DNA from: an uncultured Rhizobiaceae bacterium
GTDB taxonomy: Bacteria > Pseudomonadota > Alphaproteobacteria > UBA828
Assembly (NCBI GenBank): GCA_964429775.1
Contig: CAYSDJ010000003.1
Location: 75,129 to 139,128 of the forward strand
Length of the DNA: 64,000 nt
Direction: 5' to 3'
Shown here: piece by piece, positions 19,187 to 37,490 of the stretch
Position numbering within the stretch: the stretch's first letter is position 1
Layout of the letters: each line of letters begins with the position of its first letter
The notes under the pieces: model-generated
The model's database searches: none
Seen by the model: the letters and a program-made list of their open reading frames with translations, nothing else
What the model was told of the DNA's origin: nothing
Position numbers and translations under genes: made by a program

Positions 19187-20260
19187 ATGAATGACATGAC
19201 CCGTAAAACTGCCTTGATCACCGGCGTAACCGGCCAGGATGGCGCCTATCTTGCCGAACTGCTGCTCAGCAAGGGTTATGAGGTGCATGGTATCAAGCGG
19301 CGTTCCTCCTCCTTCAACACAGAGCGCGTCGATCACCTTTACCGCGACCTCCATTCGGGCGAGGCGCGCTTCCGTCTTCATTTCGGTGATATGACCGATG
19401 CGACGAATTTGATTCGCCTGTTGCAGGAAACCAAGCCCAGCGAAATTTACAATTTGGCGGCGCAAAGCCATGTCGCTGTAAGCTTTGAGACGCCGGAATA
19501 TACCGCCAATTCCGATGCCCTCGGCACCCTGCGGCTGCTCGAAGCCATGCGCATTCTCGATTTCGGCAAGGAGACCCGGTTTTATCAGGCATCGACATCG
19601 GAGCTTTATGGCAATGCGCCGCAATCGCCGCAAAATGAGGATACGCCCTTTGCGCCGCGCAGTCCCTATGCGGCGGCCAAGCTGTATGCCTATTGGATCA
19701 CCGTTAATTACCGCGAGGCCTACGGCTTTCACGCCTCGAACGGCATTCTGTTCAACCATGAAAGCCCGGTGCGCGGCGAGACGTTCGTGACGCGCAAGAT
19801 TACCCGTGCCGTTGCCGCGATTAAGCTCGGGCTGCAGGACAAGCTCTATCTCGGCAACCTCGATGCCAAGCGGGATTGGGGCCATGCGCGCGACTATGTT
19901 GAAGGCATGTGGCGGATATTGCAACAGGACAAGCCGGGTGATTATGTCTTGGCGACGGGGGAGAATCACTCCGTGCGTGAATTCGTCGAAATCGCCTTTG
20001 CCCGCATCGAACGGCAGATAGAATGGCGCGGCGAGGGGCTCAATGAGGAGGGCCTGGACAGCGCCAGCGGCGAGGTTTTGGTGAAGATCGATCCGCGTTA
20101 TTTCCGCCCGACCGAAGTCGATAGTCTGCTCGGCGATCCGGCCAAGGCGCATGACATACTCGGCTGGCGCCACCAAACGAGCTTCGCCCAGCTGGTTTCG
20201 GAAATGCTCGATGCGGATTTTAAAAAAGTCGCCGAACAGCAGCGTTCGGGCCATGAATAA
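19187..20260 (+). CDS. gmd: GDP-mannose 4,6-dehydratase
   Basis: Near-colinear with E. coli Gmd: [37 protein letters not shown] and [19 protein letters not shown]. Confidence 0.95.
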
Positions 20261-21228
20261 TGGCTAAATCCGAGCCCGCCTATTCACTCGCTGGCAAAAG
20301 GGTGTGGGTGGCCGGCCATCGCGGCCTGGTCGGCTCTGCCCTGGTAAAGCGCCTGGATGAAGAGCAATGTGAGCTGGTTTCCGCTGATCGCACCCGGCTC
20401 GACCTTAGGCGCCAGGCGGATGTCGAGGATTGGCTCAGCGAAGCGCGGCCCGAGGCTATTTTTCTCGCCGCCGCGACAGTCGGCGGCATTCACGCCAACG
20501 ATAGCCGACCGGCTGAATTCCTCTATGACAATATGATGATCGAGGCCAACGTTATCCACGCCGCCCAGCGCGTCGGTGTCGAGAAATTGCTGTTTCTCGG
20601 CTCAACCTGCATCTATCCCAAATTTGCCCCGCAACCGATCGCCGAAGGGGATCTTCTGACCGGCCCGCTTGAGCCCACCAATCAATGGTATGCGCTGGCG
20701 AAAATCGCCGGCATTTATCTTTGCCAAGCCTATCGCCGGCAACATGGCTGTAATTTTATTTCGGCCATGCCGACCAATCTATACGGCCCCGGTGATTTTT
20801 TTGAGGCCGAGAACAGTCACGTGATCCCGGCGCTGATGGGAAAAATTCATCATGCCGTCAGGAAAAACGCGTCCGAAGTGGAAATTTGGGGCAGCGGGGA
20901 GCCCTACCGCGAGTTTCTCTATTCGGAGGACGCGGCGGATGCATTGGTTTTCCTTATGCAAGCCTATTCCGGTGACACGCATGTCAATATCGGTACCGGA
21001 GAAGAGCTCAAGATAATTGAACTGGCGCAGCTGATCGCCGATGTCGCCGGCTATCGCGGTGGCTGGAGATTCGACCGCAGCCGGCAGGACGGCACGCCGC
21101 GCAAACTGTCCGATGTCCGCCTCCTAAAAGCACTCGGTTGGACTCGGCCGACGGCGTTGCGTGAGGGCCTGCAAACGACTTACGACTGGTTCCAAGGTGC
21201 GCTTGCGGCGGGGCAAATTCGCGTTTAA
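20260..21228 (+). CDS. fcl: GDP-L-fucose synthase (GDP-4-keto-6-deoxymannose 3,5-epimerase/4-reductase)
   Basis: WcaG/Fcl-type SDR. The ATG overlaps the gmd stop as TAATG. Confidence 0.9.
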   Translation: MAKSEPAYSLAGKRVWVAGHRGLVGSALVKRLDEEQCELVSADRTRLDLRRQADVEDWLSEARPEAIFLAAATVGGIHANDSRPAEFLYDNMMIEANVIHAAQRVGVEKLLFLGSTCIYPKFAPQPIAEGDLLTGPLEPTNQWYALAKIAGIYLCQAYRRQHGCNFISAMPTNLYGPGDFFEAENSHVIPALMGKIHHAVRKNASEVEIWGSGEPYREFLYSEDAADALVFLMQAYSGDTHVNIGTGEELKIIELAQLIADVAGYRGGWRFDRSRQDGTPRKLSDVRLLKALGWTRPTALREGLQTTYDWFQGALAAGQIRV

Positions 21229-21247
21229 AGGGCGCGCGGCAGATTCT

Positions 21248-21901
21248 ATGAACAGAGTGGAATTTCCTCTTGATGATCGTGGTATGTGGTGTGAGATTCG
21301 CCACGCCGTCGGCGCCGTTGCGCCGCGCCCGGCGCTGTTTCTGGACCGCGACGGCACGCTGATCGAATTGGTTGATTATCTTTGCCGGGCCGAGGAAGTG
21401 CGCCCGATCCCTGAAGCAATTGCCCTGACCGCCCGGGCTCGGGCGAACAATATGCCGGCCATTATGGTGACCAACCAGTCAGGCGTCGGGCGTGGTTATT
21501 ATGGCTGGCATGAATTCGCGGCCGTGCAACAGGCGGTGCATGCCGCGGTGGCGGCGGGTGGTGGACAAATCGATGCGGTGTACGCTTGTCCGGCGATGCC
21601 CGAGAGCGGCGCCGCCTGCCGTAAGCCGAATCCCGGTATGCTGTTGGCGGCGGCGGATGACCTTTCCCTTGATCTCAGCCAAAGCTGGATTGTCGGCGAT
21701 GCGGCGAGCGATTTGGCCGCTGGCATGCGGGCCGGGCTGCGGCGCGGCTGGCTCGTCGCCACAGGCTATGGCGCGGCGGAGCGCGATCAGGCATTGCATC
21801 TCAGAAGCAGCGGCTTCGATGTCACGGTTGAGCGGCCCTTGAGTGAGCTGGCGGAGCTGTTGCCGTCTTGTCGAACGCCCGAGCAGAAGGTAAACCTGTA
21901 A
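21248..21901 (+). CDS. gmhB: HAD-IIIA phosphatase, D,D-heptose 1,7-bisphosphate phosphatase-like (GmhB)
   Basis: Motifs LFLDRDGTLI, KPNPGML and IVGDAASD. The start is set at ATG 21248, after the fcl stop. Confidence 0.75.
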   Translation: MNRVEFPLDDRGMWCEIRHAVGAVAPRPALFLDRDGTLIELVDYLCRAEEVRPIPEAIALTARARANNMPAIMVTNQSGVGRGYYGWHEFAAVQQAVHAAVAAGGGQIDAVYACPAMPESGAACRKPNPGMLLAAADDLSLDLSQSWIVGDAASDLAAGMRAGLRRGWLVATGYGAAERDQALHLRSSGFDVTVERPLSELAELLPSCRTPEQKVNL

Positions 21902-21930
21902 CTCCCAATGAGCGATATTAGCGGCGGCGC

Positions 21931-22554
21931 ATGAGCACTTTTCCTGAGCGACCTTACACCTCAATCGGCAGCTATTGTGATGATTATGTCGCGCAATTGG
22001 CGCGCGCCAGCGGCTCGATTGATCATGACCGGTTGGCGGCGGCCGGCGATATTTTGAATCAGGCGTTTGAGCGTGGCGCATGGCTCTATGTTTGCGGCAA
22101 TGGCGGCTCGGCGGCGATCGCCAATCACCTGCTGTGCGATTTCGCCAAGGGCATCCAGACCGATACCGAGCTCTTGCCGCGTGTCATTTCGCTCAGCGCC
22201 AATCTCGAACTGATCACCGCCATCGCCAATGATATCACCTTCGAGGATTGCTTCGTCTATCAGCTTCGCACAGCGGCGCGTCCCGGCGATGTGCTGCTGA
22301 CGATCAGCAGCTCGGGCGATTCCGAAAATGTCGTACGCGCCGTTGAATGGGCCAGCGCGAACGAGGTCCAGTCGATCGCGTTAACCGGATTTGACGGCGG
22401 GCGCTCGGCCCGTCTGGCCGCCGTCAACATCCATGTGAGCGGCGATAATTATGGCGTGGTCGAAGATACCCACCAGTCGATCATGCATATTTTTTCACAA
22501 TATTTGCGCCAAGCGAGAATGTCGGACTCGCTGATCACGTCGCGTAAATTCTAA
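21931..22554 (+). CDS. gmhA: SIS-domain phosphoheptose isomerase (GmhA)
   Basis: Motifs VCGNGGSAAIANHL and ISSSGDSENV. Confidence 0.8.
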   Translation: MSTFPERPYTSIGSYCDDYVAQLARASGSIDHDRLAAAGDILNQAFERGAWLYVCGNGGSAAIANHLLCDFAKGIQTDTELLPRVISLSANLELITAIANDITFEDCFVYQLRTAARPGDVLLTISSSGDSENVVRAVEWASANEVQSIALTGFDGGRSARLAAVNIHVSGDNYGVVEDTHQSIMHIFSQYLRQARMSDSLITSRKF

Positions 22555-24792: not shown

Positions 24793-25783
24793 ATGGCGAA
24801 TTTGCTCGAGGGTTTCGCGGTATTGGTCACCGGTGGCGCCGGATTTTTAGGCTCCCATCTGTGCGACCGTTTGATCGGCGATGAGCACGAGGTTCTTTGC
24901 CTCGATAATTTCGTCACCGGCAGTAAAAACAATATCGCGCATCTTCTGGATAGTCGCCGCTTCGAGCTGGTGCGTCACGATGTGTCCTTTCCCTATTACG
25001 CCGAAGTCGGCGGCATCTACAATCTCGCCTGTCCGGCTTCGCCGCGGCACTATCAGCGCGATCCGATGTTTACCATCAAGACCTCGGTGATGGGTGCGAT
25101 CAACATGCTGGGCCTGGCCAAGCGGCGTGGCGCGCCAATTTTTCAGGCCTCGACGTCGGAAGTCTACGGCGATCCGACCATCCATCCCCAACCCGAAAGC
25201 TACACCGGCAACGTCAATCCGATCGGTATCCGAGCGTGTTATGACGAAGGCAAACGCTGCGCCGAAACATTGTTCTTCGATTATCACCGCCAGAACGGAG
25301 TCAATATCCGTGTCGCGCGCATCTTCAATACCTATGGGCCGCGCATGGCGGTGGGCGACGGGCGGGTGGTCAGTAATTTTATCGTTCAGGCGTTGCGCGG
25401 CGAGGATTTAACCGTTTACGGCGATGGCTCCCATTCGCGCTCTTTTTGTTATGTCGATGATCTGGTGGACGGCATTCTCAGGCACATGGCCCATCGATGA
25501 TCTGGTGGACGGCATTCTCAGGCACATGGCCCATCCAAGCGAAACCGGGCCGGTAAATCTCGGCAATGAAAACGAATTTACCATGCTGGAATTGGCCGAG
25601 ACGGTGGTTCGTCTGATTGGCGGTTCTTCGCGCATTGTTTTCGAAAAAATACCCGAGGATGATCCGAGCCAACGCCAGCCCGATATTTCCAAGGCGCGCG
25701 AGACGCTCGGCTGGGAGCCGCAGGTGAATCTCGAAGACGGTCTCAAAGAGACGATAGATTATTTTCGTATGCAGCTCGCCTGA
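24793..25783 (+). pseudogene. uxs: UDP-glucuronate decarboxylase (UDP-xylose synthase, uxs), frameshifted by a 40-bp tandem duplication
   Basis: ORF 24793..25500 carries the N-terminal three quarters ([12 protein letters not shown]...YDEGKR) and ends ...MAHR*. ORF 25424..25783 carries the C-terminus in another frame. Both contain [13 protein letters not shown]. Deleting one repeat copy restores a UXS of about 316 aa. Confidence 0.8.
25455..25534. repeat. Perfect 40-bp head-to-tail tandem duplication (CGATGATCTGGTGGACGGCATTCTCAGGCACATGGCCCAT x2)
   Basis: Copies lie at 25455-25494 and 25495-25534 and are identical. 40 is not a multiple of 3. Confidence 0.95.
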
Positions 25784-27013: not shown

Positions 27014-28630
27014 ATGACGGCAAACAGCGCATCTGTGCAGAGCGGTCGGCAGGGCACGTTTTTCTATCGCTTGGCCCTGGTGACCGTCGATTTGGCGTCG
27101 ATCGGCCTTCCCGCCTGGCTTTTCATTGACAGTGTCTCCTTCGCCTATGGCCTGGTGATTGCCCTGATGCAGACTTTCGTCTTTCGTGAAAATTCGCTCT
27201 ATTGGCGCCATTCCGCTCTCTATAAGGCGTTTTGGCCGCAATTTACCGCGGTGCTGCGCTCCTATATTCCGATCTTCATTATCTTTTGCGTCATATCCTT
27301 TATTTCCCAAGCTTTCGGCTCACGCCCCCAGCCGGGTGACCTGTTACTGTTGTTCGCTGTCGTGGTTGGCTTGACCATCGCCATGCGTTTCGTCCTCACT
27401 GCCTTGATCAAACTGACCTCGTTCGGGCTCGCGCCGGGCTGGCTGGTTATCGGCGCCTCGCCGCGGGCGCGCTTGATTGCCGAGGAGATCAAGAGCGAGA
27501 CCGGCAAGATGCGTTTTCTCGGTTTTGTCGTTGAGCGCCGTGATGCCGAGGCCGGGGATATTCCGGGCGACGAAATCGCCGCATCGATTGATGGGCTGGA
27601 AGACGCGATCACCATCACCGGTGCCTCGAATGCGGTGGTTGTGGCTGACGACAAACCGATTGGCGAGGTTCTCGAAATTGTTGACCGTGTTGGCGCCTGC
27701 CCGGTGGTCGGTTTCATCTATAACGAGGCGTTCGATATTGTCCGCCAGCGGTACAAGAGCCTGCCGATTGGCGACTACACAGTAACCTCTATCGAAACCG
27801 GCGCGCGTTCGGACGTCGATGCCATGCTGTCGCGCAGCATGGATTTTGTCGGCGCCGGCTTTTTTCTCGCTCTCTTCTCGCCGCTCTTTTTGGTGATTGC
27901 GCTGGCCATCAAACTAAGCAGTCCGGGGCCGGTGTTTTTTCTCAGCGACCGCGTGCGCGACCGCGCCGGCCACACCTTCCGGTTCTATAAATTCCGCTCC
28001 ATGCGGGTGCGCAGCGCCGATCCGGCAGCGGAGCGCGATGAAGATATGGACAAGCTCTTTGCCGGCACCGTGGCGGACAAGGAAAATACCAAGATCAAGC
28101 CCAAGGGCGCGGTCACCGGCGTTGGCGGCTTCCTGCGCAAATACAGCCTCGACGAATTGCCGCAACTGATCAATGTGCTGAAAGGCGATATGAGCCTGGT
28201 CGGGCCGCGTCCGTGCCTAAAATATGAATATGAGCGCTACCAGGAATGGCACAAGCGCCGCCTCGACGCCAAGCCCGGTATGACAGGTCTATGGCAAGTG
28301 GTGGCGCGCAGCAAAACCAATTTCGACGAACAGGCCATTCTTGATATCTATTACAACGACCACCGCACCGTGTGGTTTGATATCGAGATTCTGCTGAAGA
28401 CAATACCGGTTGTCTTAATATGGCCGCGGCGGCGGCTGAGTGACGAGCGGGGCCGGCGTGACATCCTCGCGGCGTTCAGGGCGCAATTCGATTTACGGCC
28501 TTTTGGGGTTCGCGATTCCGGCGTTGGTGCAGATCGCCGCATACCCCATTCTCATCCATCATCTCGGCCCCGAGATTGTCGGCATTTATTTGCTCGCGAC
28601 CGTCTTGAGCGGTGCCTGGATGTTTTTTGA
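27014..28630 (+). CDS. Polyprenyl-phosphate sugar-1-phosphate transferase (WbaP/ExoY family, Bac_transf)
   Basis: N-terminal TMs precede a catalytic domain: ...[27 protein letters not shown]...[21 protein letters not shown]. The roughly 60-aa low-complexity tail after ...IPVVL overlaps wzx by 190 nt, so the 3' end is uncertain. Confidence 0.85.
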
Positions 28631-29849
28631 TTTCGGCGTCAACGCCGCGACCTTGAAATTCGTCGCCGAGGATATCGCCGCCGGCAATCACCGCGCGGCG
28701 GAACGTGTCGTGGCCACATCGCTTTCCTTTTATGCTTTGATCGGCGTCTTTGGCGCGCTCGTCATCTGGTTCCTGGCGCCGTTGCTGAGCGACTGGTTTT
28801 CGATCAAGGATGATATGCGGAGCGATGCGGAGTGGGCGTTTCGCATTGCCGGCGTGCGCTTCGCCGCCTTCTTTCTCACCATGGTATTGATCTCCCTGTT
28901 CAAGGGGCTTCACCGCTTCGAATATTCGATGGTGATCCTCTCGATCCTTCAGGTGATCACATTTGGCGGCGCCATATTGGGCGTGCTAATCGCCGATGCC
29001 GGTCTGGTCGGTATTTCCCTCATCGGCATGACGGCAAATTTGATCATTCTGATTCTGTCACTGGTGCTGGCTTTTCGCCTGAGTGCGCGGAACGGAATAT
29101 TCCTCAGCCGGGCGAGACCCTCGATCGCCACCTTTCGCCGTACATTTTCCTATGGCGCCTTCATGGGTCTAAACGGTATTGCCTCGACCCTGACGCAGAT
29201 GGTGCAGCGCGGGCTGGTCGCGGCCATTTTGGGACCCGGTGCGGTGACCGTGTTCAGCATTGCCGCGATGATTGCGCAGCGCGCCAATCAGGCCTATGCC
29301 GCGCTGTTCGAGTTTATCGTGCCGACCGTATCGGCGATGACGGGCGACCTCAATGACGAAACCAAGCGGCGCCAGACGGAGCGCCGATTGCGCCGGCTCT
29401 ATTTGCTGTCTTTCTCCGGCGCCGCGGCTCTCGCCCTGGCCGCCGCCATCCTGCTTTATTTCATTGCGCCCTTCATCATCCCCCTGTGGCTGAATTCGGA
29501 GGAAATCAATGAAGAGGTGATATTGCTTGTTCGCCTGTTTTGCCCGGCGATCGCCGCCTATGGCATCATCGCGCCGGGCTATCACATGCTGAATGGTCTC
29601 GGCCGGCCTCACCTCAACACGATTTTCCGCCTCGCCACACCGGCGTTGCTTTACGCGATACTCGCCGGACTGTGGATCGACGAGCTGGTTCTGGAGGAAT
29701 TCGCAATCGCGCAATCAGGCGCCCTGGTCGTTGTCGCGCTCGGTTTTATCGCCTTCTTGGAAATCGTGGTGTGGCGCGGCTGGATTCGAAAAAACAAAAT
29801 CATGGTCAAAACTAGACCGGACAGCTCTGCAAAAATTATGGACGGCTAG
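28440..29849 (+). CDS. wzx: Wzx-type polysaccharide flippase (MOP superfamily)
   Basis: About 12 TMs with PST-family topology. The start is GTG 28440; an alternative GTG is at 28458. Confidence 0.8.
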   Translation: MTSGAGVTSSRRSGRNSIYGLLGFAIPALVQIAAYPILIHHLGPEIVGIYLLATVLSGAWMFFDFGVNAATLKFVAEDIAAGNHRAAERVVATSLSFYALIGVFGALVIWFLAPLLSDWFSIKDDMRSDAEWAFRIAGVRFAAFFLTMVLISLFKGLHRFEYSMVILSILQVITFGGAILGVLIADAGLVGISLIGMTANLIILILSLVLAFRLSARNGIFLSRARPSIATFRRTFSYGAFMGLNGIASTLTQMVQRGLVAAILGPGAVTVFSIAAMIAQRANQAYAALFEFIVPTVSAMTGDLNDETKRRQTERRLRRLYLLSFSGAAALALAAAILLYFIAPFIIPLWLNSEEINEEVILLVRLFCPAIAAYGIIAPGYHMLNGLGRPHLNTIFRLATPALLYAILAGLWIDELVLEEFAIAQSGALVVVALGFIAFLEIVVWRGWIRKNKIMVKTRPDSSAKIMDG

Positions 29850-31263
29850 AGCTGCTGCGCGTTGCCACGCTACCGGGCGTCGGTTGCGGAACGCCGCCGG
29901 GCGGTGCGGCAGGCGTTGCGGCACGCTGGACGCGCACTTTCTTCACCGGGCGGTAAACGCCATTCAAAATATTCTGGCCATAGGCAAGGGTCACGCCCCA
30001 CAGGAAATAGAACGGGATGGTGTGATAGGGCTTCTCGAACGTGTCCTGGTTGGTCGCCACGATCCAGGTGAAGAGAAAATAGAGAAACAATATGAGAAGG
30101 CGATTTTGGCCGATAGCCCAGCCCATCTTGCCGCATGCCCGATAGGCGCGGTGCCATGACCGGATCAGCAAAATGGCAATCATGAGATAGGCGGCGAGAC
30201 CGATAGCGCCGATGCGGGCGCCAATCGAAATATAGGAATTATGCGGTTCGCGCACGATCACATCGCCAACCTGGAAATTGACTAGCGGCTCGCCGTAACC
30301 CAGGCCGAACAACAGAGTCATCGGTTTAGACGAAACTTCGCGCCATATCTGCATCCACCAAAAGGCGCGCAGGCTGTTGCCCGAGGCCGCGCCTTCGGTG
30401 CCTTCATTTGAAATGCCGGCGATCGCCAGGATGTGATTGAGGACAAATTCGATGTCGACCGTTTTGCCCAACCGCCCTTTCATTTCGACGCCCAATTCAG
30501 GCAGGGCAATCAGGGCGCCGATCAGCAGGCTTATCATAATTCCGATACGGCGGAAGGCTCGGCCATGGGTCACGCTGAGAACCAGCGCCATGGCAAAAAT
30601 CTGCAAGTAGACGGTACGCGATTGGAACAGCATGGCGACGAGGCTGGTGAGAATCGTCGCCGCAAGGATGACCCAGGGCCCGGCCTTCTTGGGTTGGAAT
30701 ACAAACAGGTAGGCCACCGCGATCAGTGCGGTCAGGGAGATGCTTTGGAAGCGGAAAAAGAGCGTGCGCTGTTCGCCGGCGGCGGCGACCAGGGTGGGTG
30801 AAAATTCGGCCAAGTCTTCGCGCAGCGGATACAGCAGCGCATAAAATCCGACGATAACCAAAATCTTCGGCAACCAGCGAAAAACGCGCTCGCATTGCTG
30901 CGCATTGATCGCCATGGCAAAGCCGACATAGAGATAAAGCGATTCGATTACATGCGCGGCATCGCGAATTGCCCAGAAGCCATGGTCGGGAAAGGCGAGA
31001 ATGACGCGCGTGACGCCCAGCACCCACCACAGGATCAGCGGCCAGATGAAGATGCTGCGCACGAATTGCGGCATCACTTTCATGTGATTGATGCTGCACA
31101 AGGCCATCAGCAGCACCAGTTCGCCGATCGGCGCGCCGCTGCCGGGCGGAATGCGCAGCTGCATAAAGCCCTGGTTGAGGACGATATAGCAGCCGACGGT
31201 AAACAGCAGCACGCCGTTGCGGAAATTGACGAGATTCATGTGTTTCTTCGCGCGCCTTCGCAT
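29836..31263 (-). CDS. wzy: Wzy-type polysaccharide polymerase / O-antigen-ligase-like membrane protein (Wzy_C)
   Basis: The protein is polytopic. The Wzy_C motif VREPHNSYISIGARIG sits in a periplasmic loop. It converges on wzx with a 14-nt overlap. Ligase and polymerase cannot be told apart from sequence. Confidence 0.7.
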   Translation of the reverse strand: MRRRAKKHMNLVNFRNGVLLFTVGCYIVLNQGFMQLRIPPGSGAPIGELVLLMALCSINHMKVMPQFVRSIFIWPLILWWVLGVTRVILAFPDHGFWAIRDAAHVIESLYLYVGFAMAINAQQCERVFRWLPKILVIVGFYALLYPLREDLAEFSPTLVAAAGEQRTLFFRFQSISLTALIAVAYLFVFQPKKAGPWVILAATILTSLVAMLFQSRTVYLQIFAMALVLSVTHGRAFRRIGIMISLLIGALIALPELGVEMKGRLGKTVDIEFVLNHILAIAGISNEGTEGAASGNSLRAFWWMQIWREVSSKPMTLLFGLGYGEPLVNFQVGDVIVREPHNSYISIGARIGAIGLAAYLMIAILLIRSWHRAYRACGKMGWAIGQNRLLILFLYFLFTWIVATNQDTFEKPYHTIPFYFLWGVTLAYGQNILNGVYRPVKKVRVQRAATPAAPPGGVPQPTPGSVATRSSSSRP

Positions 31264-31324
31264 TGCTCGGCAGTTGCGGTCGGTTTGAATATAGCATAAC
31301 CGGCGAAAGCGCGGTCCATAGACA

Positions 31325-32506
31325 ATGCTATGGTTTCAAACAATGAGCAAACCGCCCAGATTCGCGCCTGGCCGTCACTGGCCGGCTTTTGCCGCCGCCG
31401 CCCTGGCGCTGCTCACGCTGCTGTTCTTCACGCAATATGACGGGTTCGAGCCGCGCAGCGGAAACCTTCTCGGCAATGGCGATTTTTCACAAGGGTTGCG
31501 CGGCTGGCACCAGCGCGGCGCGTCGGACGCGGTGCGTGCGGTGGCGGGCACGCCCGGTTATGCCGAAATCAGCAATAACGACCCGTCGCGCTCGGTTCAT
31601 CTCTGGCAGGCCATCGGGCAGCCGGGGCGCTTTGATTATGTCAGTGTCGAATTTGAGCTTTGGCTGGAAGATGTCGCGCGCGGCCAAAGGCCAGAGCAAC
31701 AAGCGCGCATAATCTTGGCCAGCTATGACAGCGCCGGCAACGGCTTGTGGCATCATCCCCACATCGTCCTGGTGGCGGACGGCAGCCGGGGTTGGACGCA
31801 TTACCGCGCCTCGTTTCCGGTTGGGCATGATGTGCATGAAATGCGTTTGAACGCGGAGCTCAAGCGCGCCACCGGGCGCTTGCGGGTGCGCGGCCTTTCC
31901 CTTCGCGGGGCGGCGGCGGAGCCGGCTTGGCTCGCCTGGCGCGCTCTGTTGATCGCGCTTTGGGCCGTACTCGGATTGGTTTTGGCGCGCAATCTACTGA
32001 GCGCCAGGCCGGGCCGCTGGGCCGGTCTGGTCGCAATTGCGTTGGCCGCGGTTTTCCTGCTTGGCACGCTCAGCCCCAAGCAATTTCAGCACGTTGCCGA
32101 GAATGAAATTGTCAGTTGGTTTGCAGCCGATCAGGAGAGTGGCGAGGTGCAAGAGAAGCGGCGGGAACCGGCTTCAAGTCGTTCAAACACCTCAAGTGCC
32201 AAACCGCACGCGCCGCGGCCGCCGGATTTTGAGCTATTGCGGCCGGGCAAGTTTGCTCATCTGCTGTTGTTTGCCCTGTTCGGCGGCGCGCTGGCTTTGT
32301 CGCGGCCAGGCGCGGCGGCCAGAACAATTCTGGCGTCTTTGTTATTGGCTGCGGCCGTGGCCGAAATGTTGCAATTTTTTGCCCACGGCCGCACGCCGGC
32401 GCTTGAAGACATTGCCATCAACGCGCTCGGCGCTTTCGCCGGCGGCGGAGTAATGTTGCTGGCCTTGCGCTTCGGCCTTGATCGCGTTGGCTTGCGCACA
32501 CCATGA
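31325..32506 (+). CDS. VanZ-like family membrane protein with an N-terminal periplasmic domain
   Basis: The C-terminal region KFAHLLLFALFGG...FFAHGRTPALEDIAINALGAFAGG matches the VanZ signature R....D...N..G. The N-terminus has a TM and a roughly 180-aa extracytoplasmic domain. Confidence 0.5.
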   Translation: MLWFQTMSKPPRFAPGRHWPAFAAAALALLTLLFFTQYDGFEPRSGNLLGNGDFSQGLRGWHQRGASDAVRAVAGTPGYAEISNNDPSRSVHLWQAIGQPGRFDYVSVEFELWLEDVARGQRPEQQARIILASYDSAGNGLWHHPHIVLVADGSRGWTHYRASFPVGHDVHEMRLNAELKRATGRLRVRGLSLRGAAAEPAWLAWRALLIALWAVLGLVLARNLLSARPGRWAGLVAIALAAVFLLGTLSPKQFQHVAENEIVSWFAADQESGEVQEKRREPASSRSNTSSAKPHAPRPPDFELLRPGKFAHLLLFALFGGALALSRPGAAARTILASLLLAAAVAEMLQFFAHGRTPALEDIAINALGAFAGGGVMLLALRFGLDRVGLRTP

Positions 32507-32565
32507 TATTCGCCACTATTCCGCGCTATAGTGGTGTGCAAGATGATTAAGCGTAGTTTTTAAAT

Positions 32566-33738
32566 ATGACGATGAGCGATGCCGCGCCGGATAGCCGGCG
32601 ATGCGAAACCAGCAACGACCCGGCAAGCCTGATCGATTGCCTGTTTGCCGCGCAACTGGGCGAGGAAAAATCCAAGCCCGGGCCGGCAGTCGATTTCGGT
32701 GCTTTCGCGTCTTCCGAACGGTTGCGCTGGTTATTTCCCTGTGATGCACGGGTGCGCGAGTTCTTGTGTGCCTGGCAGCCTGCGGGCAGGTTGCGCGCCC
32801 TGATATGGCGCACCGCCGTGCGCGCCTCGACAGCCGGTTTGGCCGGATTGATGCCGGGCATAACGCGCCATGCGGTTGATGGCGCTGCCGTCGCCCGTCT
32901 TGCGCATCGCTTCGGTCACGAGACGGCGGAATGTCTGCCGGCGATTTATATCGGCACCATCGGCTATCGGCGAAAGGCGGTTGTCGGCTGGATGGATCGG
33001 CGTGGCGCCTGCGTTGCGGTCGGGAAGTTTCCGCTCGGGCGGCGCGCGGCTGAGGCATTGGCCAACGAGGCCAAGGCACTGACCGGTCCGGCCGCGAAAC
33101 TGGGCATTGCCATGCCCGCCTTGCGCCATTGGGATGAGGCGGCCGGGCTGTTATTGCAAAGCAGTGTCGCGGGGCGCAATTGTCCGGCGCCGTTCGATGC
33201 GCGCCATGCTTCCCTGCTGGTGAAACTGGTGAGCCCGGAAGCGCGCTTGGCAGCGGCGGTATATGCCGAGCTACTGGAGAGCAACGATGCGCGAATTGCC
33301 GCATCGGCGAAAATCTTATTGGCCGGGTATGAGAATGAAAATGTCTGTCCGGCGCAAATGCACGGTGATTTCACCCAGGCCAATCTGAAGCAAATTGGCG
33401 GGCGGGAATTGGCCGTGGTGGATTGGGAATATTATTCGCCCGTGGGCGCACCTTTGGCGGACGCAATCTATTTTCAATTATTTAGGAGCTATTTTATCAA
33501 TCACCTCAGCGGCCCGGCGCTGCTGCGCGAGCTGTTGCGTTTTATTGACAGCGGGCATATTGCGCGCTTGTGTGAAGTGGCGGGCATTGGATTGGCGGCG
33601 CGCCGCCGTTTCGCCTGCCTTGGGCTTTTGGCTGTCGCGCAGTCCCGTGTCCGAGACGGCGAGGATGAAAACGATGCGGCGCGCGTCACCATTCTCGATG
33701 TCGTGGATCGAATGGCAAAGGAACTTTCAGCCGGATGA
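32566..33738 (+). CDS. Aminoglycoside-phosphotransferase-like (protein-kinase-fold) phosphotransferase
   Basis: Catalytic loop HGDFTQANL and Mg-binding VVDWEY match APH/choline-kinase motifs. A candidate nucleotide-binding Lys lies in AVGKFP. Confidence 0.6.
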   Translation: MTMSDAAPDSRRCETSNDPASLIDCLFAAQLGEEKSKPGPAVDFGAFASSERLRWLFPCDARVREFLCAWQPAGRLRALIWRTAVRASTAGLAGLMPGITRHAVDGAAVARLAHRFGHETAECLPAIYIGTIGYRRKAVVGWMDRRGACVAVGKFPLGRRAAEALANEAKALTGPAAKLGIAMPALRHWDEAAGLLLQSSVAGRNCPAPFDARHASLLVKLVSPEARLAAAVYAELLESNDARIAASAKILLAGYENENVCPAQMHGDFTQANLKQIGGRELAVVDWEYYSPVGAPLADAIYFQLFRSYFINHLSGPALLRELLRFIDSGHIARLCEVAGIGLAARRRFACLGLLAVAQSRVRDGEDENDAARVTILDVVDRMAKELSAG

Positions 33739-35162
33739 AACATCGGAAATCAGAGATAGGCCCACGCCGTTTTGGCTTGTTTCGCGGTGGCGTGTTTTCG
33801 GTAATATTCCATGCGGGAATTATCCTGGTGATTGCCGTGGTGGTTGTCTATTTGCTCAACATGTCGCCCGCGGAGGACACCGGCGCGCCCGAAACGGCGC
33901 ACGATTCGGCGGGCCAGCAGGAAGCCGCCACAGAGCCTGCCGCGCCCGTTGTTCAAACTGCGAACCAGACTGTCGTTCAGAACAATGAAACCGATGCGCC
34001 CAAAACGTTGCAGGAGGTTTCCGAACGAATCGATGAATTGTTTCTCGAAATTATCAGCGGCTTCGATCCTGCCGATCCAGAATCGCGGGAATATCTGAAG
34101 CGTTTGATCCGCGATGCCACAGCCGGTTATGTCGATGAACAATTTCTCGTTGGCGAATTTTACCTGGCTGGAACAGGGGTGAAAAAGAGCGAGAAGCGGG
34201 CCGCCGAACTGCAGTTGAAATCGGCTGAGAAAAAACTTGTCGATGCGCAAATCCGCATGGGCTCACTTTACGCGCTCGGCCGCGGCGTGCCGGTTAATGT
34301 CGCGCGCGCACATATGTGGTGGAGCCTCGCCGCCGAAACCGGCGATACATTGGCGGCGCAGGCGGCGCATCTCATGCGCCCCATGATGACTCACACGGAT
34401 TTCTCAAATTCGGCGCGCGATGCCCTTGAGTTGAAGCAATATTGGGATTCCTGGCAGCGCTTCGCCATCATCAATAATCCGCAATTGAGCAATCAGCTTC
34501 TCGCTGCGGCGCGTGCCGGCAACGCGGTGCGGATTCGCCGCCTGCTTGATCAGGGCGCGGATCCCAATATCGAGGACCGCAAGGGGCGCGCGGCGTTGCT
34601 GCTGAGCGCCAAGGGTGGCCACGGCGATTCGGCGCAGGCGCTTCTGGCGCGTGGCGCCGATGCCAATGCGACCGACGAGAACGGCAAGAGCGTGCTCATG
34701 TATGCAGCCGAAAATGGCGACGGTAAATTGGTGAAAGCGCTGTTGCAGCGAAAGGTCGATGTCAACGCCGCCAATAAATTCGGTGAAACGGCGTTGATCA
34801 ATGCCGCCTGGCGCGGCAGAAAATCGGTCGCCAACACACTTATTGAGCGTGGTGCGGAAGTTGATCTGCCCGACAAGCAGGGCGGGACAGCGCTAATCTG
34901 GGCTGCCATTAACGGCCATACGGACGTGCTCGAACTGTTGGTCGACCGCCGTGCGAAAATCGATTGGATCGATAATTCCGGTTTGACGGCGCTCTCCCGG
35001 GCGGCGTGGAACGGCGAAATCGATGCGGTCGATACCTTGCTTGACCTTGGTGCCGATCCGTTGGTGCGCGACAAAGAGGGCATGACGGCCGCCATTCGGG
35101 CCGAATCGGAAGGCCACGAAGATATCGTATCAAGACTGTCGCGCTCAGCGCGCGGCGGATAG
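33735..35162 (+). CDS. Membrane-anchored Sel1-repeat plus ankyrin-repeat protein
   Basis: An N-terminal TM (VIFHAGIILVIAVVVVYLL) is followed by two Sel1-like repeats (...YLAGTGVKKSEKRA..., ...YALGRGVPVNVARA...) and at least five ANK repeats (G.TALI.AA..GH..V...L). The ATG overlaps the upstream stop as ATGA. Confidence 0.8.
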   Translation: MKHRKSEIGPRRFGLFRGGVFSVIFHAGIILVIAVVVVYLLNMSPAEDTGAPETAHDSAGQQEAATEPAAPVVQTANQTVVQNNETDAPKTLQEVSERIDELFLEIISGFDPADPESREYLKRLIRDATAGYVDEQFLVGEFYLAGTGVKKSEKRAAELQLKSAEKKLVDAQIRMGSLYALGRGVPVNVARAHMWWSLAAETGDTLAAQAAHLMRPMMTHTDFSNSARDALELKQYWDSWQRFAIINNPQLSNQLLAAARAGNAVRIRRLLDQGADPNIEDRKGRAALLLSAKGGHGDSAQALLARGADANATDENGKSVLMYAAENGDGKLVKALLQRKVDVNAANKFGETALINAAWRGRKSVANTLIERGAEVDLPDKQGGTALIWAAINGHTDVLELLVDRRAKIDWIDNSGLTALSRAAWNGEIDAVDTLLDLGADPLVRDKEGMTAAIRAESEGHEDIVSRLSRSARGG

Positions 35163-35259
35163 GGCTATTGCTTTAGGCCTTATATGCACTGGTCAAAAGA
35201 ACTGTTTTTTGCGAAATTAACCGAATATTTTCAATTTGGAAGCGACAGTTACAAAGATT

Positions 35260-35313
35260 TGATGACGTAAGACAGTCATCATGTTGACATTGTTTGCTTT
35301 GGTACAATATATA
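35260..35313 (+). promoter_or_regulatory. Sigma70-like promoter with an upstream inverted repeat
   Basis: The inverted repeat TGATGAC-N8-GTCATCA lies at 35260-35281. TTGACA is at 35284-35289. After an 18-nt spacer, TATATA is at 35308-35313. Confidence 0.35.
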
Positions 35314-35383
35314 AGCTGTGAGCAAACAGCGCTTTCCCGGTCAATGGCCGGGAGGTGCCCCATATGGAGATTGATGGCCCAGT

Positions 35384-35533
35384 ATGAGTGATGGACAGAC
35401 ACGTAGAGCTATCATTAAGCGCATGGCCGCGCTGGCGGCGCTTGGCTATGTGGCGCCTCAGGTCGTCACCATCAGAGATGCGGCGGCCAAAAAGAAAAAG
35501 AAAAAAGCCCCGCCTTCGGCGCCTAGAAACTAA
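35384..35533 (+). CDS. Small protein (49 aa) MSDGQTRRAIIKRMAALAALGYVAPQVVTIRDAAAKKKKKKAPPSAPRN, translationally coupled to a 7-codon uORF
   Basis: It is shorter than 60 aa and so absent from the ORF track. The uORF ATG at 35364 follows GGGAGG at 8-nt spacing and encodes MEIDGPV*. The uORF stop overlaps the main ATG as ATGA. The N-terminus has the Tat-like motif TRRAIIK plus AALAALG, and the C-terminus is K6. A T6 run follows at 35560-35565. Confidence 0.35.
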   Translation: MSDGQTRRAIIKRMAALAALGYVAPQVVTIRDAAAKKKKKKAPPSAPRN

Positions 35534-35572
35534 CCTGGCTACGGCACGGCTGCGCCCCTTTTTTACGGACTA

Positions 35573-36055
35573 TTATAACCGAGGGTCCTGCACTGCGTGC
35601 AGGCGGCTCGCGGCGATTCGCGCGAAGCGAAGCGTTTGTTTTCTGCGCCCGCCTGCCGGCATCGCCTCGCGCGGCGCTTCCCGGGTGCATTCGGCGCCGT
35701 AGCTGTCGGCCAACATGACGCCGCATTCCGCCGGCAGCACCGCCACCGGAAAATCCCCCGCCACAGCGAAATAGAAGTGATCGCAATGGGCCAAATAGTC
35801 GGGCCATTTCGAATCGGCGCGAAAATCCGCAAGGCTGCTTTTGATTTCGACGATGATAAAGCTGCCGCGCCGGTCGAGTGCGAGAACATCGGCGCGCCGG
35901 CCGGATGAAAGGGGAAATTCGGCCAACGCAACGCAATCCATCGCTTCTAGCAAACGGCAGACTCCGCGTACGAGCCCTTGGGCATTCTTCTCCACCTGCC
36001 ACGGCCGGGCTAAATCAAGCGCGAGCTCGACTGGTGTGATCATGACTTTGCGCAT
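35573..36055 (-). CDS. MmcB-like PD-(D/E)XK nuclease family protein
   Basis: The core ADVLALD...FIIVEIKSSLADF is a PD-(D/E)XK core of the MmcB type. Confidence 0.6.
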   Translation of the reverse strand: MRKVMITPVELALDLARPWQVEKNAQGLVRGVCRLLEAMDCVALAEFPLSSGRRADVLALDRRGSFIIVEIKSSLADFRADSKWPDYLAHCDHFYFAVAGDFPVAVLPAECGVMLADSYGAECTREAPREAMPAGGRRKQTLRFARIAASRLHAVQDPRL

Positions 36056-36197
36056 CCCGGGTTTATGCGGTTTTTGCTCTAGTTAAGACAATCGAAATAA
36101 AAACATAGCCTAATGCAGTTGAGCCGGTTGGTGGTGAGAAATCGCGCCTCTTTGGCGATCTCGCCTAGCCCGGCGGATTGGGTTTCAGACGTGGAGA

Positions 36198-37490
36198 GTG
36201 GTCGACAATGTTGCACGAACCGGTGATAAGGCGGTCAATCAAATGAGCCCCGCCACGCGCGCGACCAGCCACGAGGTAATCCTTCTCGATGTGGCTTACC
36301 GTATTGCCAAAACAAGTGAGCTGGAACCACAAATTGCGATTCATATGCATTTGTCCAATTTGCAGCCGCGCTGGCGCTCGGAAGCCTTTATCCGTGTTGC
36401 CGCCAGTACTTTTGAGCCGCTCGTGCAGAAGCGCTCGGGCCAGGTATTTGTGCTCGCGAGCGGCGATATCGTTTTTCTCGGTGGCCGTTCCAGCAACGAG
36501 GAAGTTGAAGACATTCTAACCAAACTTCAGCAAATGTTTGGCGAAGATCCATGGTTCCACGACACCAAGAAGGCAACCACGCTGCCATTCGCGACATGGT
36601 ACAGGTTGCCGGCGGACGCGGAAGCCTTTGTCACCACATGCGAGCAGTTAAACACATCGGTTGGGCAATACCGTGCGGCGGTATCCGCACAACGGAGAGG
36701 CCAAAGCGCCATGGCCAACTTGCCTGAAGCCGGCGCTGCCGAGCTTGATGATGCGCTGCACAAGATTGACGATGTCGATATGAAGCTGTCGCTGCGCCGC
36801 CAGTCGATCGGAATATTCCTGCCCGGGCAGCCGGTGAAGCGGCTTTTTTCGGAGCTTTATGTTTCTGTCTATGATTTGCACAAACGATTGGCGATGGAAG
36901 CCGATCTTGCGCAAAACCGGTGGCTCTTCCAGCATTTTACCTTGGCAATGGATGAAGCTGTACTGGCCAATTTTATCGAAAACGGAATTCCGGGCAAAAC
37001 CGGCAGTATCAGCCTCAATATCAATGTTGCGACCATTTTGTCGGCGCAATTTCTCGATTTTGATCAGGCATGGCGCCGAGGTGCCGAGGATAAAATGATA
37101 CTCGAACTGCACCAGGTCGACATTTTCGATGATATGCCGGCCTACAAATTCGCCTGTAATTTTCTCCGTATGCGGGGCTACGCAATTTGTGTCGATGGGG
37201 TGACTCATCTGACATTCCCGTTTACCGACCGCGAGAGCCTGGGCGCGGATTTCATAAAAATTGTCTGGAGTCCGGATATGGCCGGCAATCGCGAAGACAA
37301 TCTCACTCAGCGCATGAAGGCTTATGTCGCCAAGGCCGGTGCCGGCAATGTGATCCTCTGCCGCTGCGATACAAAGGAAAGTATCGAGTGGGGCCAAATG
37401 GTTGGGATCAGATTATTCCAGGGCCGCATCGTCGAAACCCTGCTCGAATCCACCGCCAATGCCGGACGACAGGCTGGCGTCGCTTCGTAA
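36198..37490 (+). CDS. Hypothetical protein with degenerate GGDEF-like and degenerate EAL-like domains (candidate c-di-GMP effector)
   Basis: The C-terminus aligns to EAL with catalytic motifs mutated: ILELHQ for EITE, CVDGVTH for DDFG, FIKIVWS for KID, and CDTKESIEW...FQGR. The N-terminus has a GGDEF-like block FVLASGDIVFL. GC is about 52%, lower than neighbouring genes. The start is GTG 36198; an alternative ATG is at 36243. Confidence 0.5.
   Translation: MVDNVARTGDKAVNQMSPATRATSHEVILLDVAYRIAKTSELEPQIAIHMHLSNLQPRWRSEAFIRVAASTFEPLVQKRSGQVFVLASGDIVFLGGRSSNEEVEDILTKLQQMFGEDPWFHDTKKATTLPFATWYRLPADAEAFVTTCEQLNTSVGQYRAAVSAQRRGQSAMANLPEAGAAELDDALHKIDDVDMKLSLRRQSIGIFLPGQPVKRLFSELYVSVYDLHKRLAMEADLAQNRWLFQHFTLAMDEAVLANFIENGIPGKTGSISLNINVATILSAQFLDFDQAWRRGAEDKMILELHQVDIFDDMPAYKFACNFLRMRGYAICVDGVTHLTFPFTDRESLGADFIKIVWSPDMAGNREDNLTQRMKAYVAKAGAGNVILCRCDTKESIEWGQMVGIRLFQGRIVETLLESTANAGRQAGVAS

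Follow-up and report, generated by a model that had tools for sequence, protein, structure and literature searches.

The choline kinase LicA of Streptococcus pneumoniae, which belongs to a pathway with the cytidylyltransferase LicC and with LicD, serves the decoration of a surface glycopolymer. The sugar kinases WaaP, WaaY and KdkA of the lipopolysaccharide core and the kinase domain of WbdD, which have the eukaryotic-like-kinase fold, phosphorylate lipid-linked glycans. WbdD belongs to an ABC-transporter pathway in which the chains are grown in the cytoplasm, and it also carries a methyltransferase domain and a coiled coil. Periplasmic alpha-solenoids are likewise known from polysaccharide systems: the Sel1-repeat regulator ExoR (ExoS/ChvI, succinoglycan), AlgK, and the TPR domains of PgaA, PelB and BcsC. 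AnkB is a periplasmic ankyrin protein of Pseudomonas aeruginosa. For the membrane proteins of the VanZ family we know of no member with a demonstrated enzymatic activity. We describe here three adjacent genes, hereafter the trio, which encode a VanZ-like protein (open reading frame 1, ORF1), a kinase of the aminoglycoside phosphotransferase (APH) fold (ORF2) and a membrane-anchored protein with Sel1 and ankyrin repeats (ORF3). They are found in a stretch of 64,000 nucleotides of contig CAYSDJ010000003.1 from an uncultured Rhizobiaceae bacterium; this whole stretch is called the window, and all coordinates are positions within it. The trio lies beside a wzy-like gene of a Wza/Wzc/Wzx/Wzy-type polysaccharide locus. 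Its components are of known kinds; the combination is undescribed and narrowly distributed. Our best explanation, put forward tentatively, is that the trio is a clade-specific accessory module of this surface-polysaccharide locus, with the roles for kinase, VanZ protein and scaffold that are set out below. Most likely it tailors or processes the polysaccharide.

The VanZ family was placed in the Lipocone superfamily by Burroughs, Nicastro and Aravind (eLife 2025, PMC12419801). These authors reported a significant linkage of VanZ-1 with exopolysaccharide genes (WaaL-like, Wzz, Wzc, flippases) and predicted that VanZ acts on the head groups of flipped lipid-linked intermediates. They also described proteins consisting of a signal or transmembrane segment, an extracellular ligand-binding domain, a transmembrane segment and a Lipocone domain, in which the inserts include jelly-roll and other carbohydrate-binding domains. 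ORF1 shares with the Lipocone VanZ proteins their motifs, the exopolysaccharide-locus setting (Wzc, flippase and Wzy/WaaL-like genes) and the architecture of a domain between transmembrane segments. Neither the presence of a VanZ gene in an exopolysaccharide locus nor its extra domain is new in kind, since both are found in that study. According to its context tables, the link of APH-like kinases is with the related Skillet-DUF2809 lipocones alone (20 loci, among them fusions), and that of ankyrin repeats with CapCone-2 toxins alone. The pairing of a lipocone with an APH-like kinase thus has a precedent; a neighbourhood of VanZ, APH-kinase and Sel1/ankyrin genes, as present in the window, is not listed there. 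Our literature search on the trio, and on polysaccharide kinases of this fold in Wzy loci, gave nothing specific beyond this study.

The three proteins

The genes of the trio and the segments of their products are as follows.

31325-32506, plus strand: ORF1, VanZ-family (Lipocone superfamily) membrane protein of 393 amino acids
31436-31921, plus strand: predicted extracytoplasmic domain of ORF1, residues 38-199 (about 160 residues), flanked by transmembrane segments, from the hydropathy scan
32219-32479, plus strand: VanZ/Lipocone core helices of ORF1, residues 299-385, from the Pfam match, with transmembrane segments 330-354 and 363-385
32566-33738, plus strand: ORF2, predicted cytoplasmic kinase of the APH fold, 390 amino acids
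33361-33429, plus strand: putative catalytic loop H266-G-D268-x4-N273 and Mg-binding motif D286-W-E288 of ORF2
33735-35162, plus strand: ORF3, membrane-anchored Sel1 and ankyrin repeat protein of 475 amino acids
33792-33857, plus strand: predicted signal-anchor transmembrane helix of ORF3, residues about 20-41, from hydropathy and charge distribution
34134-34349, plus strand: two Sel1 repeats of ORF3, residues about 134-205, matching Sel1-repeat proteins of the PDB (E 1.8e-30 to 1e-20)
34485-35144, plus strand: about seven ankyrin repeats of ORF3, residues about 251-470, from Pfam Ank families, with the repeat period read from the sequence

The Pfam family VanZ (PF04892) matches ORF1 at residues 299-379 only (E 9e-9, 36.4 bits against a cutoff of 30.1, profile positions 55-124 of 126), and the NCBIfam model vanZ_1 matches it with a score of 23.5 against a cutoff of 20. 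The start of translation is likelier to be M7 at 31343, giving 387 residues; this start is chosen by gene callers on identical metagenome contigs and is kept in the closest relative, L001. In the hydropathy scan a basic N-terminus is followed by a transmembrane segment at residues 18-37, a hydrophilic part at residues 38-199 and transmembrane segments at about 200-222 and 229-253, after which a charged linker leads to the VanZ helices, which extend to residue 385. The domain of about 160 residues behind the first segment is predicted to be extracytoplasmic, and the protein fits the known arrangement of signal or transmembrane segment, extracytoplasmic ligand-binding domain, transmembrane segment and Lipocone. 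The VanZ motifs KxxH, ExxQ and DxxxN, as defined in PMC12419801, are all present in ORF1. The corresponding residues K309xxH312, E347xxQ350 and R356...D362xxxN366xxG369 are invariant in five orthologues.

The extracytoplasmic domain of ORF1 opens with NGDFSxGLxGW, a motif seen at the start of CBM-like beta-sandwiches. No match to this domain was found in the Pfam search, and a profile built from four orthologues gave non-significant matches only (E 0.11-0.23), among them the CBM-like domain of the Cry1A protoxin (E 0.11) and, over its full length, CBM70 of a hyaluronate lyase (4d0q, E 0.17). The domain may be a carbohydrate-binding beta-sandwich, and we give this as a lead.

ORF2 has no Pfam or NCBIfam match even at E<=10, and no transmembrane segment or signal sequence was found in it by the hydropathy scan. 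In a word-indexed search of 5.8 billion proteins the single ORF2 sequence found four clusters (at 100, 85, 59 and 58% identity) and a 50-sequence profile found eight. An exhaustive HMMER search with the four-cluster profile found 456 representative proteins at E<=1e-3, of which 187 are at E<=1e-10; most of these relatives have 340-400 residues and some are fusions of about 800 residues. Distant relatives (E about 1e-20 to 1e-24) clear the threshold of the Pfam family APH (PF01636), while ORF2 itself has no match, so that its membership in the APH family is transitive only. AlphaFold gave an unusable model with a 4-sequence alignment (pLDDT 43) and a model with pLDDT 93 and pTM 0.91 when the 50-sequence alignment was supplied. 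With this model, Foldseek returned 76 matches in the PDB at E<=1e-3, and the top 50 are nearly all APH-fold kinases (probability 1.00). The best matches are APH(2''), the tryptamine kinase PsiK, the choline kinase LicA, MTR kinase and macrolide phosphotransferases, with TM-scores of 0.3-0.5 only. By family profile the nearest solved proteins are LicA (E 4.5e-5, catalytic segment only) and the kinase domain of ACAD11 (E 1e-4).

The residues expected of such an enzyme are present. In an alignment of 50 sequences of the family D268, N273, D286, W287 and E288 are invariant, and H266, G267, K154 (beta3) and E168 (alphaC) are conserved at 90% or more; in the model K154 is located in strand 149-156 and E168 in helix 161-173. 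Also invariant are W55, P72 and W81, which belong to an N-terminal extension of about 120 residues, as well as G130 and K137. The loop itself reads H266-G-D268-F-T-Q-A-N273 (HGDFTQAN), against a family consensus of HGDFAPWN. On this evidence, which includes a structural model, ORF2 is a soluble cytoplasmic kinase of the APH/choline-kinase fold with its catalytic residues intact, and a divergent member of an uncharacterised family. With the described members of that family (LicA, APH(2''), MTR kinase and the N-terminal kinase of ACAD10/11) it shares the bilobal fold, the beta3 Lys, the alphaC Glu, the HGDxxxxN loop and the DWE metal-binding motif, but it differs from them by the N-terminal extension and by the lack of a direct Pfam match. 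The window has no gene resembling LicC or LicD, in contrast to the LicA pathway. Like ORF2, the enzymes WaaP, WaaY, KdkA and WbdD are ATP-dependent kinases of the cytoplasm that share this broad fold, and their genes belong to surface-glycan loci. A functional analogy, with a lipid-linked repeat unit as the target, is plausible; however, no sequence relationship to ORF2 was detected, no direct comparison having been made. WbdD also has a methyltransferase domain and a coiled-coil/membrane anchor, and ORF2, with 390 residues and no transmembrane segment, has neither.

ORF3 consists of a basic N-terminus (7 K, R or H residues in 18), one strong transmembrane segment, an acidic low-complexity linker (residues 42-95), a conserved helical stretch, the Sel1 repeats and the ankyrin repeats. 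The Pfam matches are clear for Ank_2 (PF12796; E 3e-41, 140 bits against 27.3) and for Sel1 (PF08238; E 3e-11, 43.8 bits against 30.7). By the positive-inside rule the repeats probably face the periplasm. The protein is 76-91% identical among lineages and its ankyrin region is near-invariant, a pattern that fits a scaffold with several binding partners. ORF3 resembles ExoR, AlgK, PgaA, PelB, BcsC and AnkB in being a predicted periplasmic protein with Sel1 or solenoid repeats that is encoded with exopolysaccharide genes, the resemblance being at the level of the repeats only; AlgK also gives a weak repeat-level NCBIfam match to ORF3. However, ExoR, AlgK, PgaA, PelB and BcsC belong to synthase-dependent systems or to a two-component switch, unlike the locus in the window, and none of the six proteins joins Sel1 and ankyrin repeats on a signal anchor as ORF3 does. 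PADLOC gave no defence-system match for the trio: the VanZ and kinase genes had no matches and the ankyrin matches were at the repeat level only.

In the window the ATG of ORF3 overlaps the stop codon of ORF2 as ATGA (GGATGAAAC). This overlap is found in the window and in the closest relative L001 only, and there are gaps between the two genes in L004 and L007. The initial annotation had already described the overlap, and its account of the three proteins agrees with our results. The VanZ-like protein with an extra periplasmic domain corresponds to the Pfam match above cutoff and to the hydrophilic residues 38-199 behind the segment at 18-37. For the APH-fold kinase with intact HGD...N and D-W-E motifs, which has no database match, the assignment was established by profile search, AlphaFold model, Foldseek and residue conservation. 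One transmembrane segment, two Sel1 repeats and about seven ankyrin repeats were found in ORF3, for which an N-terminal segment, two Sel1 repeats and at least five ankyrin repeats had been proposed.

The kinase family in exopolysaccharide loci

The 456 representatives found with the ORF2 profile come from Acidobacteriota, Cyanobacteriota, Bacteroidota, Verrucomicrobiota, Planctomycetota and Proteobacteria. ORF2 shares with this family homology over the full length (E 1e-20 to 1e-44), the N-terminal extension, the catalytic residues and the location in a Wza/Wzc/Wzy locus. The genomic setting of the family was examined in a genome scan, with one genome per species, for the pattern HGDF[ATV]PWN, so that the HGDFTQAN clade of the window is not sampled by it. 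The 80 loci obtained are mostly from Acidobacteriaceae; others are from Cyanobacteriota, Bacteroidota, Verrucomicrobiota, Planctomycetota, Alpha- and Gammaproteobacteria and Vampirovibrio. At least one of Wzc, Wza, Bac_transf, Wzy and GT4 was found in 61 of these distant loci, and Wzc or Wza in 53, in what is an insensitive test, the queries being the proteins of the window itself. The typical acidobacterial order is Bac_transf, Wzc, Wza, a P-loop protein of 223 residues, the kinase, a protein of about 390 residues, GT4, Wzy, GT2, GT4 and an fcl-like gene, and in the distant loci the kinase stands between the export genes and the GT4/Wzy/GT2 genes. The kinase family is characteristic of Wzy-type exopolysaccharide loci across many phyla. 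The initial annotation had regarded kinases of this fold as rare in Wzx/Wzy loci; for the family of ORF2 this does not hold, in view of the 61 loci with polysaccharide markers.

The members of the family adjoin, or are fused to, two partner proteins. The P-loop partner is thymidylate-kinase-like (PDB match at E 2e-8) and occurs in 55 of the 80 loci. The partner of about 390 residues, whose domain occurs in 40 of the loci, is often fused to the kinase, and the triad as a whole occurs in variable gene fusions. In this second partner the residues DxD...D are almost invariant, and there is a weak match of one member to PF14907 ('uncharacterised nucleotidyltransferase', E 0.005); no match was found among solved structures or in NCBIfam. 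From these sequence features it is probably a nucleotidyltransferase. No curated NCBIfam model names the kinase, the P-loop protein or the partner of about 390 residues. The nature of the usual companions, a P-loop protein and a nucleotidyltransferase-like protein, suggests a nucleotide-dependent chemistry for the kinase family. Examples of the triad are L047:7313-10228, L038:7908-10292 and L010:5859-9041 (among the loci L010-L089). Some carriers of the wider family can be cultured, among them Devosia elaeis S37, Kistimonas scapharcae JCM 17805, Fibrivirga algicola JA-25 and Vampirovibrio chlorellavorus.

In this respect the window differs from the family. Neither the P-loop nor the nucleotidyltransferase-like partner was found in a six-frame translation of the window (best E 0.07 and 1.4, respectively), and the hhalign comparison detected no relationship of these partners to the VanZ or Sel1/ankyrin proteins. 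Conversely, VanZ or Sel1/ankyrin genes like those of the window were found in none of the 80 distant loci. The clade of the window is a derived offshoot of the kinase family, which pairs with VanZ and Sel1/ankyrin proteins instead.

Conservation and genomic setting of the trio

The order wzy (minus strand), VanZ, kinase and Sel1/ankyrin gene is kept in at least five related marine alphaproteobacterial lineages, down to 58% identity of the kinase. The adjacency of wzy (minus) and VanZ (plus) is found in L001, L004, L007, L090-L094 and L095, which is every lineage whose contig extends that far. Conservation of the trio next to wzy in related genomes had been named in the initial annotation as a check on its interpretation, and in five lineages it was found. 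The combination of VanZ, kinase and Sel1/ankyrin genes was found only in the close relatives of the window (L001-L009, L090-L095 and P0157-P0162); a metagenome scan with the patterns of the clade found no further close relatives and gave six distant, uninformative loci. The carriers are free-living mesopelagic marine bacteria known from planktonic metagenomes, and one member of the kinase clusters comes from a Tara Oceans mesopelagic sample (TARA_037 MES).

When compared with the orthologues in L004 and L007, the identity is 60-61% for the VanZ protein, 57-59% for the kinase, 76-77% for the Sel1/ankyrin protein and 79-80% for Wzy. The flanking housekeeping genes have 64-91%, most of them 75-91%, the low values belonging to MmcB. 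The Nei-Gojobori dN/dS values are 0.21-0.22 for VanZ, 0.19-0.20 for the kinase and 0.12-0.13 for the Sel1/ankyrin gene, against 0.02-0.15 for most neighbours. These substitution patterns indicate that all three genes are functional and under purifying selection. The VanZ and kinase genes are the fastest-evolving ones of the region and diverge in step; this matching raised divergence is consistent with co-evolution. The GC content of the trio (0.58-0.62) is that of its surroundings. Horizontal acquisition of the trio as an island was considered and rejected on account of the matching GC content and the syntenic neighbourhood.

The other features of the locus to which we refer are the following.

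29836-31263, minus strand: wzy-like gene (Wzy_C/O-antigen ligase family; Pfam Wzy_C, E 1e-10)
31264-31342, no strand: divergent intergenic region between wzy and the VanZ-like gene, from the ORF coordinates
32503-32532, plus strand: promoter-like site in the spacer between the VanZ and kinase genes, from consensus scan and spacer alignment; a hint only
11927-13366, plus strand: second Wzy_C/WaaL-like gene, at the far end of the locus after a NUDIX gene
14095-16434, minus strand: Wzc-type BY-kinase
16593-17342, minus strand: Wza
17345-18670, minus strand: BBP2_2 outer-membrane beta-barrel gene, beside the Wzc/Wza pair

By Pfam scans the Wza/Wzc/Wzx/Wzy-type locus spans from about 11.4 kb to 35.2 kb. 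After the BBP2_2 gene follow a gmd-like and an fcl-like gene, HAD (GmhB-like), SIS (GmhA-like), a GFO oxidoreductase, a DegT aminotransferase, an epimerase, one GT4, one Bac_transf, wzx, wzy and the trio. The 64 kb contain a single GT4 and a single Bac_transf, as had been stated in the initial annotation for the glycosyltransferase and the initiating transferase. No Wzm/Wzt export genes were found within the locus. On the 3' side of the trio there are a small ORF, MmcB, a degenerate EAL-like gene, a RegA/RegB-like two-component pair, an ABC-2 transporter and cobT; the trio thus stands at the edge of the locus.

The wzy gene points towards wzx (28620-29849) and away from the trio, from which it is separated by about 80 bp. 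The same annotation had the trio as three co-directional genes following wzy; the position is correct and the trio lies wholly on the plus strand, but wzy is on the minus strand and is read in the opposite direction. It is context, outside the transcription unit of the trio. The promoters of both wzy and the VanZ-like gene are presumably located in the intergenic region 31264-31342, where a consensus scan gave no convincing sigma-70 match; the consensus scan likewise gave no convincing terminator or promoter bounding the trio. Four lineages share a -10 box, TATAGT (TATAAT in the relatives), in a spacer between the VanZ and kinase genes that is otherwise not conserved, and this site may be an internal promoter for the kinase and Sel1/ankyrin genes. 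A hairpin in the same spacer is not significant (z -1.4) and is not conserved, and an Rfam search of 31000-36300 gave no match.

Several observations were made on the neighbouring genes. The SIS (GmhA-like) and HAD (GmhB-like) genes (19187-22554, plus strand) are located directly 3' of the gmd-like and fcl-like genes, and this arrangement suggests a GDP-6-deoxy-heptose route; no HddA/HddC-type kinase or nucleotidyltransferase was found in the 64 kb. The NAD-dependent epimerase gene (24793-25780, plus strand) shifts frame near 25494 when compared with the intact orthologue of 316 residues in L001, so that it is either a pseudogene or contains a sequence error. L001 has a methyltransferase gene (250 residues, L001:5057-5809) between Bac_transf and wzx, which is missing at the corresponding place in the window (28418-28630), and the Bac_transf ORF of the window extends to 538 residues and overlaps the start of wzx. 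Directly 3' of the trio there is a conserved ORF of 49 residues at 35384-35533 (plus strand), MSDGQTRRAIIKRMAALAALGYVAPQVVTIRDAAAKKKKKKAPPSAPRN, in which a poly-lysine tract and the Tat-signal-like motif TRRxI[IL]KR are seen. This small gene is separate from the trio. Its counterparts in L001, L004 and L007 share 80-91% identity with it and show synonymous changes, and an invariant promoter-like box TTGACA...CAATATA lies upstream of it at about 35281-35312. An ORF of 430 residues at 36198-37490 (plus strand) has an EAL match (E 1e-5, below the gathering score); it is found in L001 and was not detected in L004 or L007, which marks a variable spot beside MmcB.

Proposed role, alternatives and significance

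In the scheme that we propose for the trio, the kinase would use ATP on the cytoplasmic side of the inner membrane to phosphorylate a hydroxyl group. It would act on one of the sugars in the undecaprenyl-diphosphate-linked repeat unit, much as WaaP, WaaY and KdkA act on the lipopolysaccharide core, or on a small precursor that becomes part of the polymer, for example as a substituent. Once the intermediate has been flipped, the VanZ protein would bind the glycan by its extracytoplasmic domain and, on the periplasmic side of the inner membrane, carry out a release or transfer reaction at the lipid-diphosphate head group. Protein partners, for example Wzy, Wzc/Wza or the VanZ ectodomain, would be held in place by the Sel1-ankyrin solenoid tethered in the periplasm. 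Taken together, the trio would tailor the polysaccharide or control its quality, and would not take part in its core synthesis. The scheme starts from what was observed (the fold, the residues, the topology predictions, the locus association and the conservation), and from this we infer every substrate and interaction in it.

A number of points weigh against this explanation. A glycan, a free sugar, a small alcohol and a protein are all compatible with the fold evidence as the target of ORF2. The usual partners of the family are missing from the window, and the role of ORF2 may have changed. The kinase and the Sel1/ankyrin repeats are predicted on opposite sides of the membrane, and the carbohydrate-binding nature of the VanZ ectodomain is suggested by non-significant matches only. 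Because of the conserved -10-like box between them, the VanZ and kinase genes need not be co-transcribed. The whole neighbourhood is equally syntenic in the relatives, including the unrelated genes for MmcB, RegA/B-like proteins and CobT, and for this reason the conserved adjacency alone is weak evidence of functional coupling. Finally, in L004 (GCA_030746645.1, JASLMO010000001.1; L004:6806-8645) residues 1-87 of DegT are joined directly to residues 341-405 of Wzx. This genome has lost the epimerase, GT4, Bac_transf and most of wzx, and its wzy is split over two frames; the trio is nevertheless full length, which weakens a strict tie to this polymer. The case of L004 could be a recent deletion or an assembly variant, or the trio could serve another polymer there or have a function independent of the locus.

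The initial annotation had also proposed a module that modifies or regulates the polymer. Its association with polysaccharide is supported by the 61 of 80 family loci, by the wzy adjacency in five lineages and by the VanZ prediction (PMC12419801), and a strict tie to the polymer is weakened by L004. It had further suggested a structure prediction and fold search for distinguishing a sugar-kinase from an antibiotic-kinase pocket; these led to APH-fold small-molecule kinases and did not separate the class of substrate.

Among the other explanations, one that we consider unlikely is that the kinase is a precursor enzyme which does not modify the polymer, the VanZ and Sel1/ankyrin proteins being functionally separate neighbours. 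It could be an anomeric sugar 1-kinase, as are NahK, AmgK and MTR kinase, that supplies the missing heptose kinase step. Alternatively, it could be a LicA-like kinase of a small alcohol, and its product would be activated with a nucleotide before its transfer to the polysaccharide. MTR kinase and LicA are indeed among the best fold and profile matches. The family kinase travels with a probable nucleotidyltransferase and a dTMP-kinase-like protein, which resembles an activation route by kinase plus nucleotidyltransferase. The SIS and HAD genes stand beside the gmd/fcl-like genes, yet HddA/HddC-type genes are missing from the 64 kb, and L004 retains these precursor genes along with the trio. However, in the window there is no nucleotidyltransferase partner and so no obvious route within the locus by which the product would be activated. 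The SIS/HAD genes are essentially absent from the 80 distant loci, so that a heptose is not the common substrate of the family, and the catalytic-loop neighbourhood HGDFTQAN differs from the HGDFAPWN of the family.

It is rather unlikely that the trio is a general envelope or resistance unit at a syntenic locus boundary, with nothing specific to this polysaccharide. The substrate of VanZ would then be lipid II or some other lipid-linked intermediate, and an antibiotic or another small molecule would be inactivated by the kinase. The VanZ and APH families were both first known from antibiotic resistance, and most of the best fold matches are antibiotic kinases. The persistence of the trio in L004 after the loss of the assembly genes, the equal synteny of unrelated flanking genes and the fast evolution of VanZ and kinase also fit such a unit. 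On the other hand, the kinase profile is closer to LicA and choline-kinase-type enzymes than to the APH resistance enzymes, the family loci are exopolysaccharide loci in 61 of 80 cases, wzy is adjacent in every lineage whose contig reaches it, and the carriers are free-living mesopelagic marine bacteria.

An improbable extension of our explanation makes the trio a trans-envelope device that couples the handling of lipid-linked glycans in the periplasm to phosphorylation in the cytoplasm. VanZ, guided by a glycan-binding ectodomain and the Sel1-ankyrin scaffold, would cleave or transfer an undecaprenyl-diphosphate-linked polysaccharide intermediate; a phosphate would then be added by the APH-like kinase, either to the carrier lipid set free in this way or to the lipid-linked repeat unit.

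We consider it quite improbable that ORF2 is a protein kinase, in the manner of YihE/SrkA, RIO or Bud32, which regulates the assembly machinery (for example Wzc or the initiating transferase) with the Sel1/ankyrin protein as adaptor. RIOK2 and the KEOPS subunit Bud32 occur lower in the fold list, and a distant family member weakly matches a YihE-type NCBIfam model, 'serine/threonine protein kinase' (E 0.027). The kinase and Sel1/ankyrin genes overlap (ATGA) in two lineages. However, the YihE-type and similar weak matches are not significant, the best matches are small-molecule kinases, the family partners handle nucleotides and are not signalling proteins, and the cytoplasmic kinase is separated from repeats that are predicted to be periplasmic.

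Ankyrin and Sel1 repeats are typical of the effectors of symbionts and pathogens, and ORF3 has NCBIfam matches at the repeat level to Legionella Ank effectors, all far below cutoffs. That ORF3 is a eukaryote-like host-interaction effector, with VanZ and kinase as bystanders, is nevertheless very unlikely, because it has an N-terminal signal anchor and not a secretion signal, its sequence is extremely conserved and not diversifying, and the carriers come from planktonic mesopelagic metagenomes. A WbdD-type chain terminator, which would set the chain length by a phosphate cap at the non-reducing end of the polymer, was named for comparison in the initial annotation and has a general precedent in the phosphorylation of an O-polysaccharide by WbdD, with its eukaryotic-like-kinase fold, but it can practically be dismissed: the locus is of the Wzx/Wzy/Wzc/Wza type without Wzm/Wzt genes, in the Wzy pathway the chain grows in the periplasm at the reducing end with the length set by Wzc/Wzz, a cytoplasmic kinase cannot reach the growing end, and ORF2 has no methyltransferase or any other Pfam domain.

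The accessory-module explanation thus remains the one that we tentatively prefer. Since the trio belongs to only a narrow group of uncultured marine alphaproteobacteria, and what we say of its function is inferential, its immediate impact is limited. However, VanZ is widespread, and here it is found next to an intact kinase and a predicted periplasmic scaffold at a polysaccharide locus. The trio is a concrete three-protein system in which the 2025 prediction that VanZ acts on the head groups of lipid-linked glycans can be tested. If the trans-envelope arrangement were true, it would be a previously unknown route of carrier recycling or phospho-tagging in Wzy-dependent synthesis, and with it a VanZ protein, as well as a kinase family of more than 450 clusters, would for the first time have a biochemical role. 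A by-product of greater interest is this family itself, with 456 clusters, no Pfam or NCBIfam model that names it, and P-loop and nucleotidyltransferase-like partners. The triad of kinase, dTMP-kinase-like protein and probable nucleotidyltransferase looks like an undescribed pathway of polysaccharide decoration or precursor activation, and it occurs in culturable strains.

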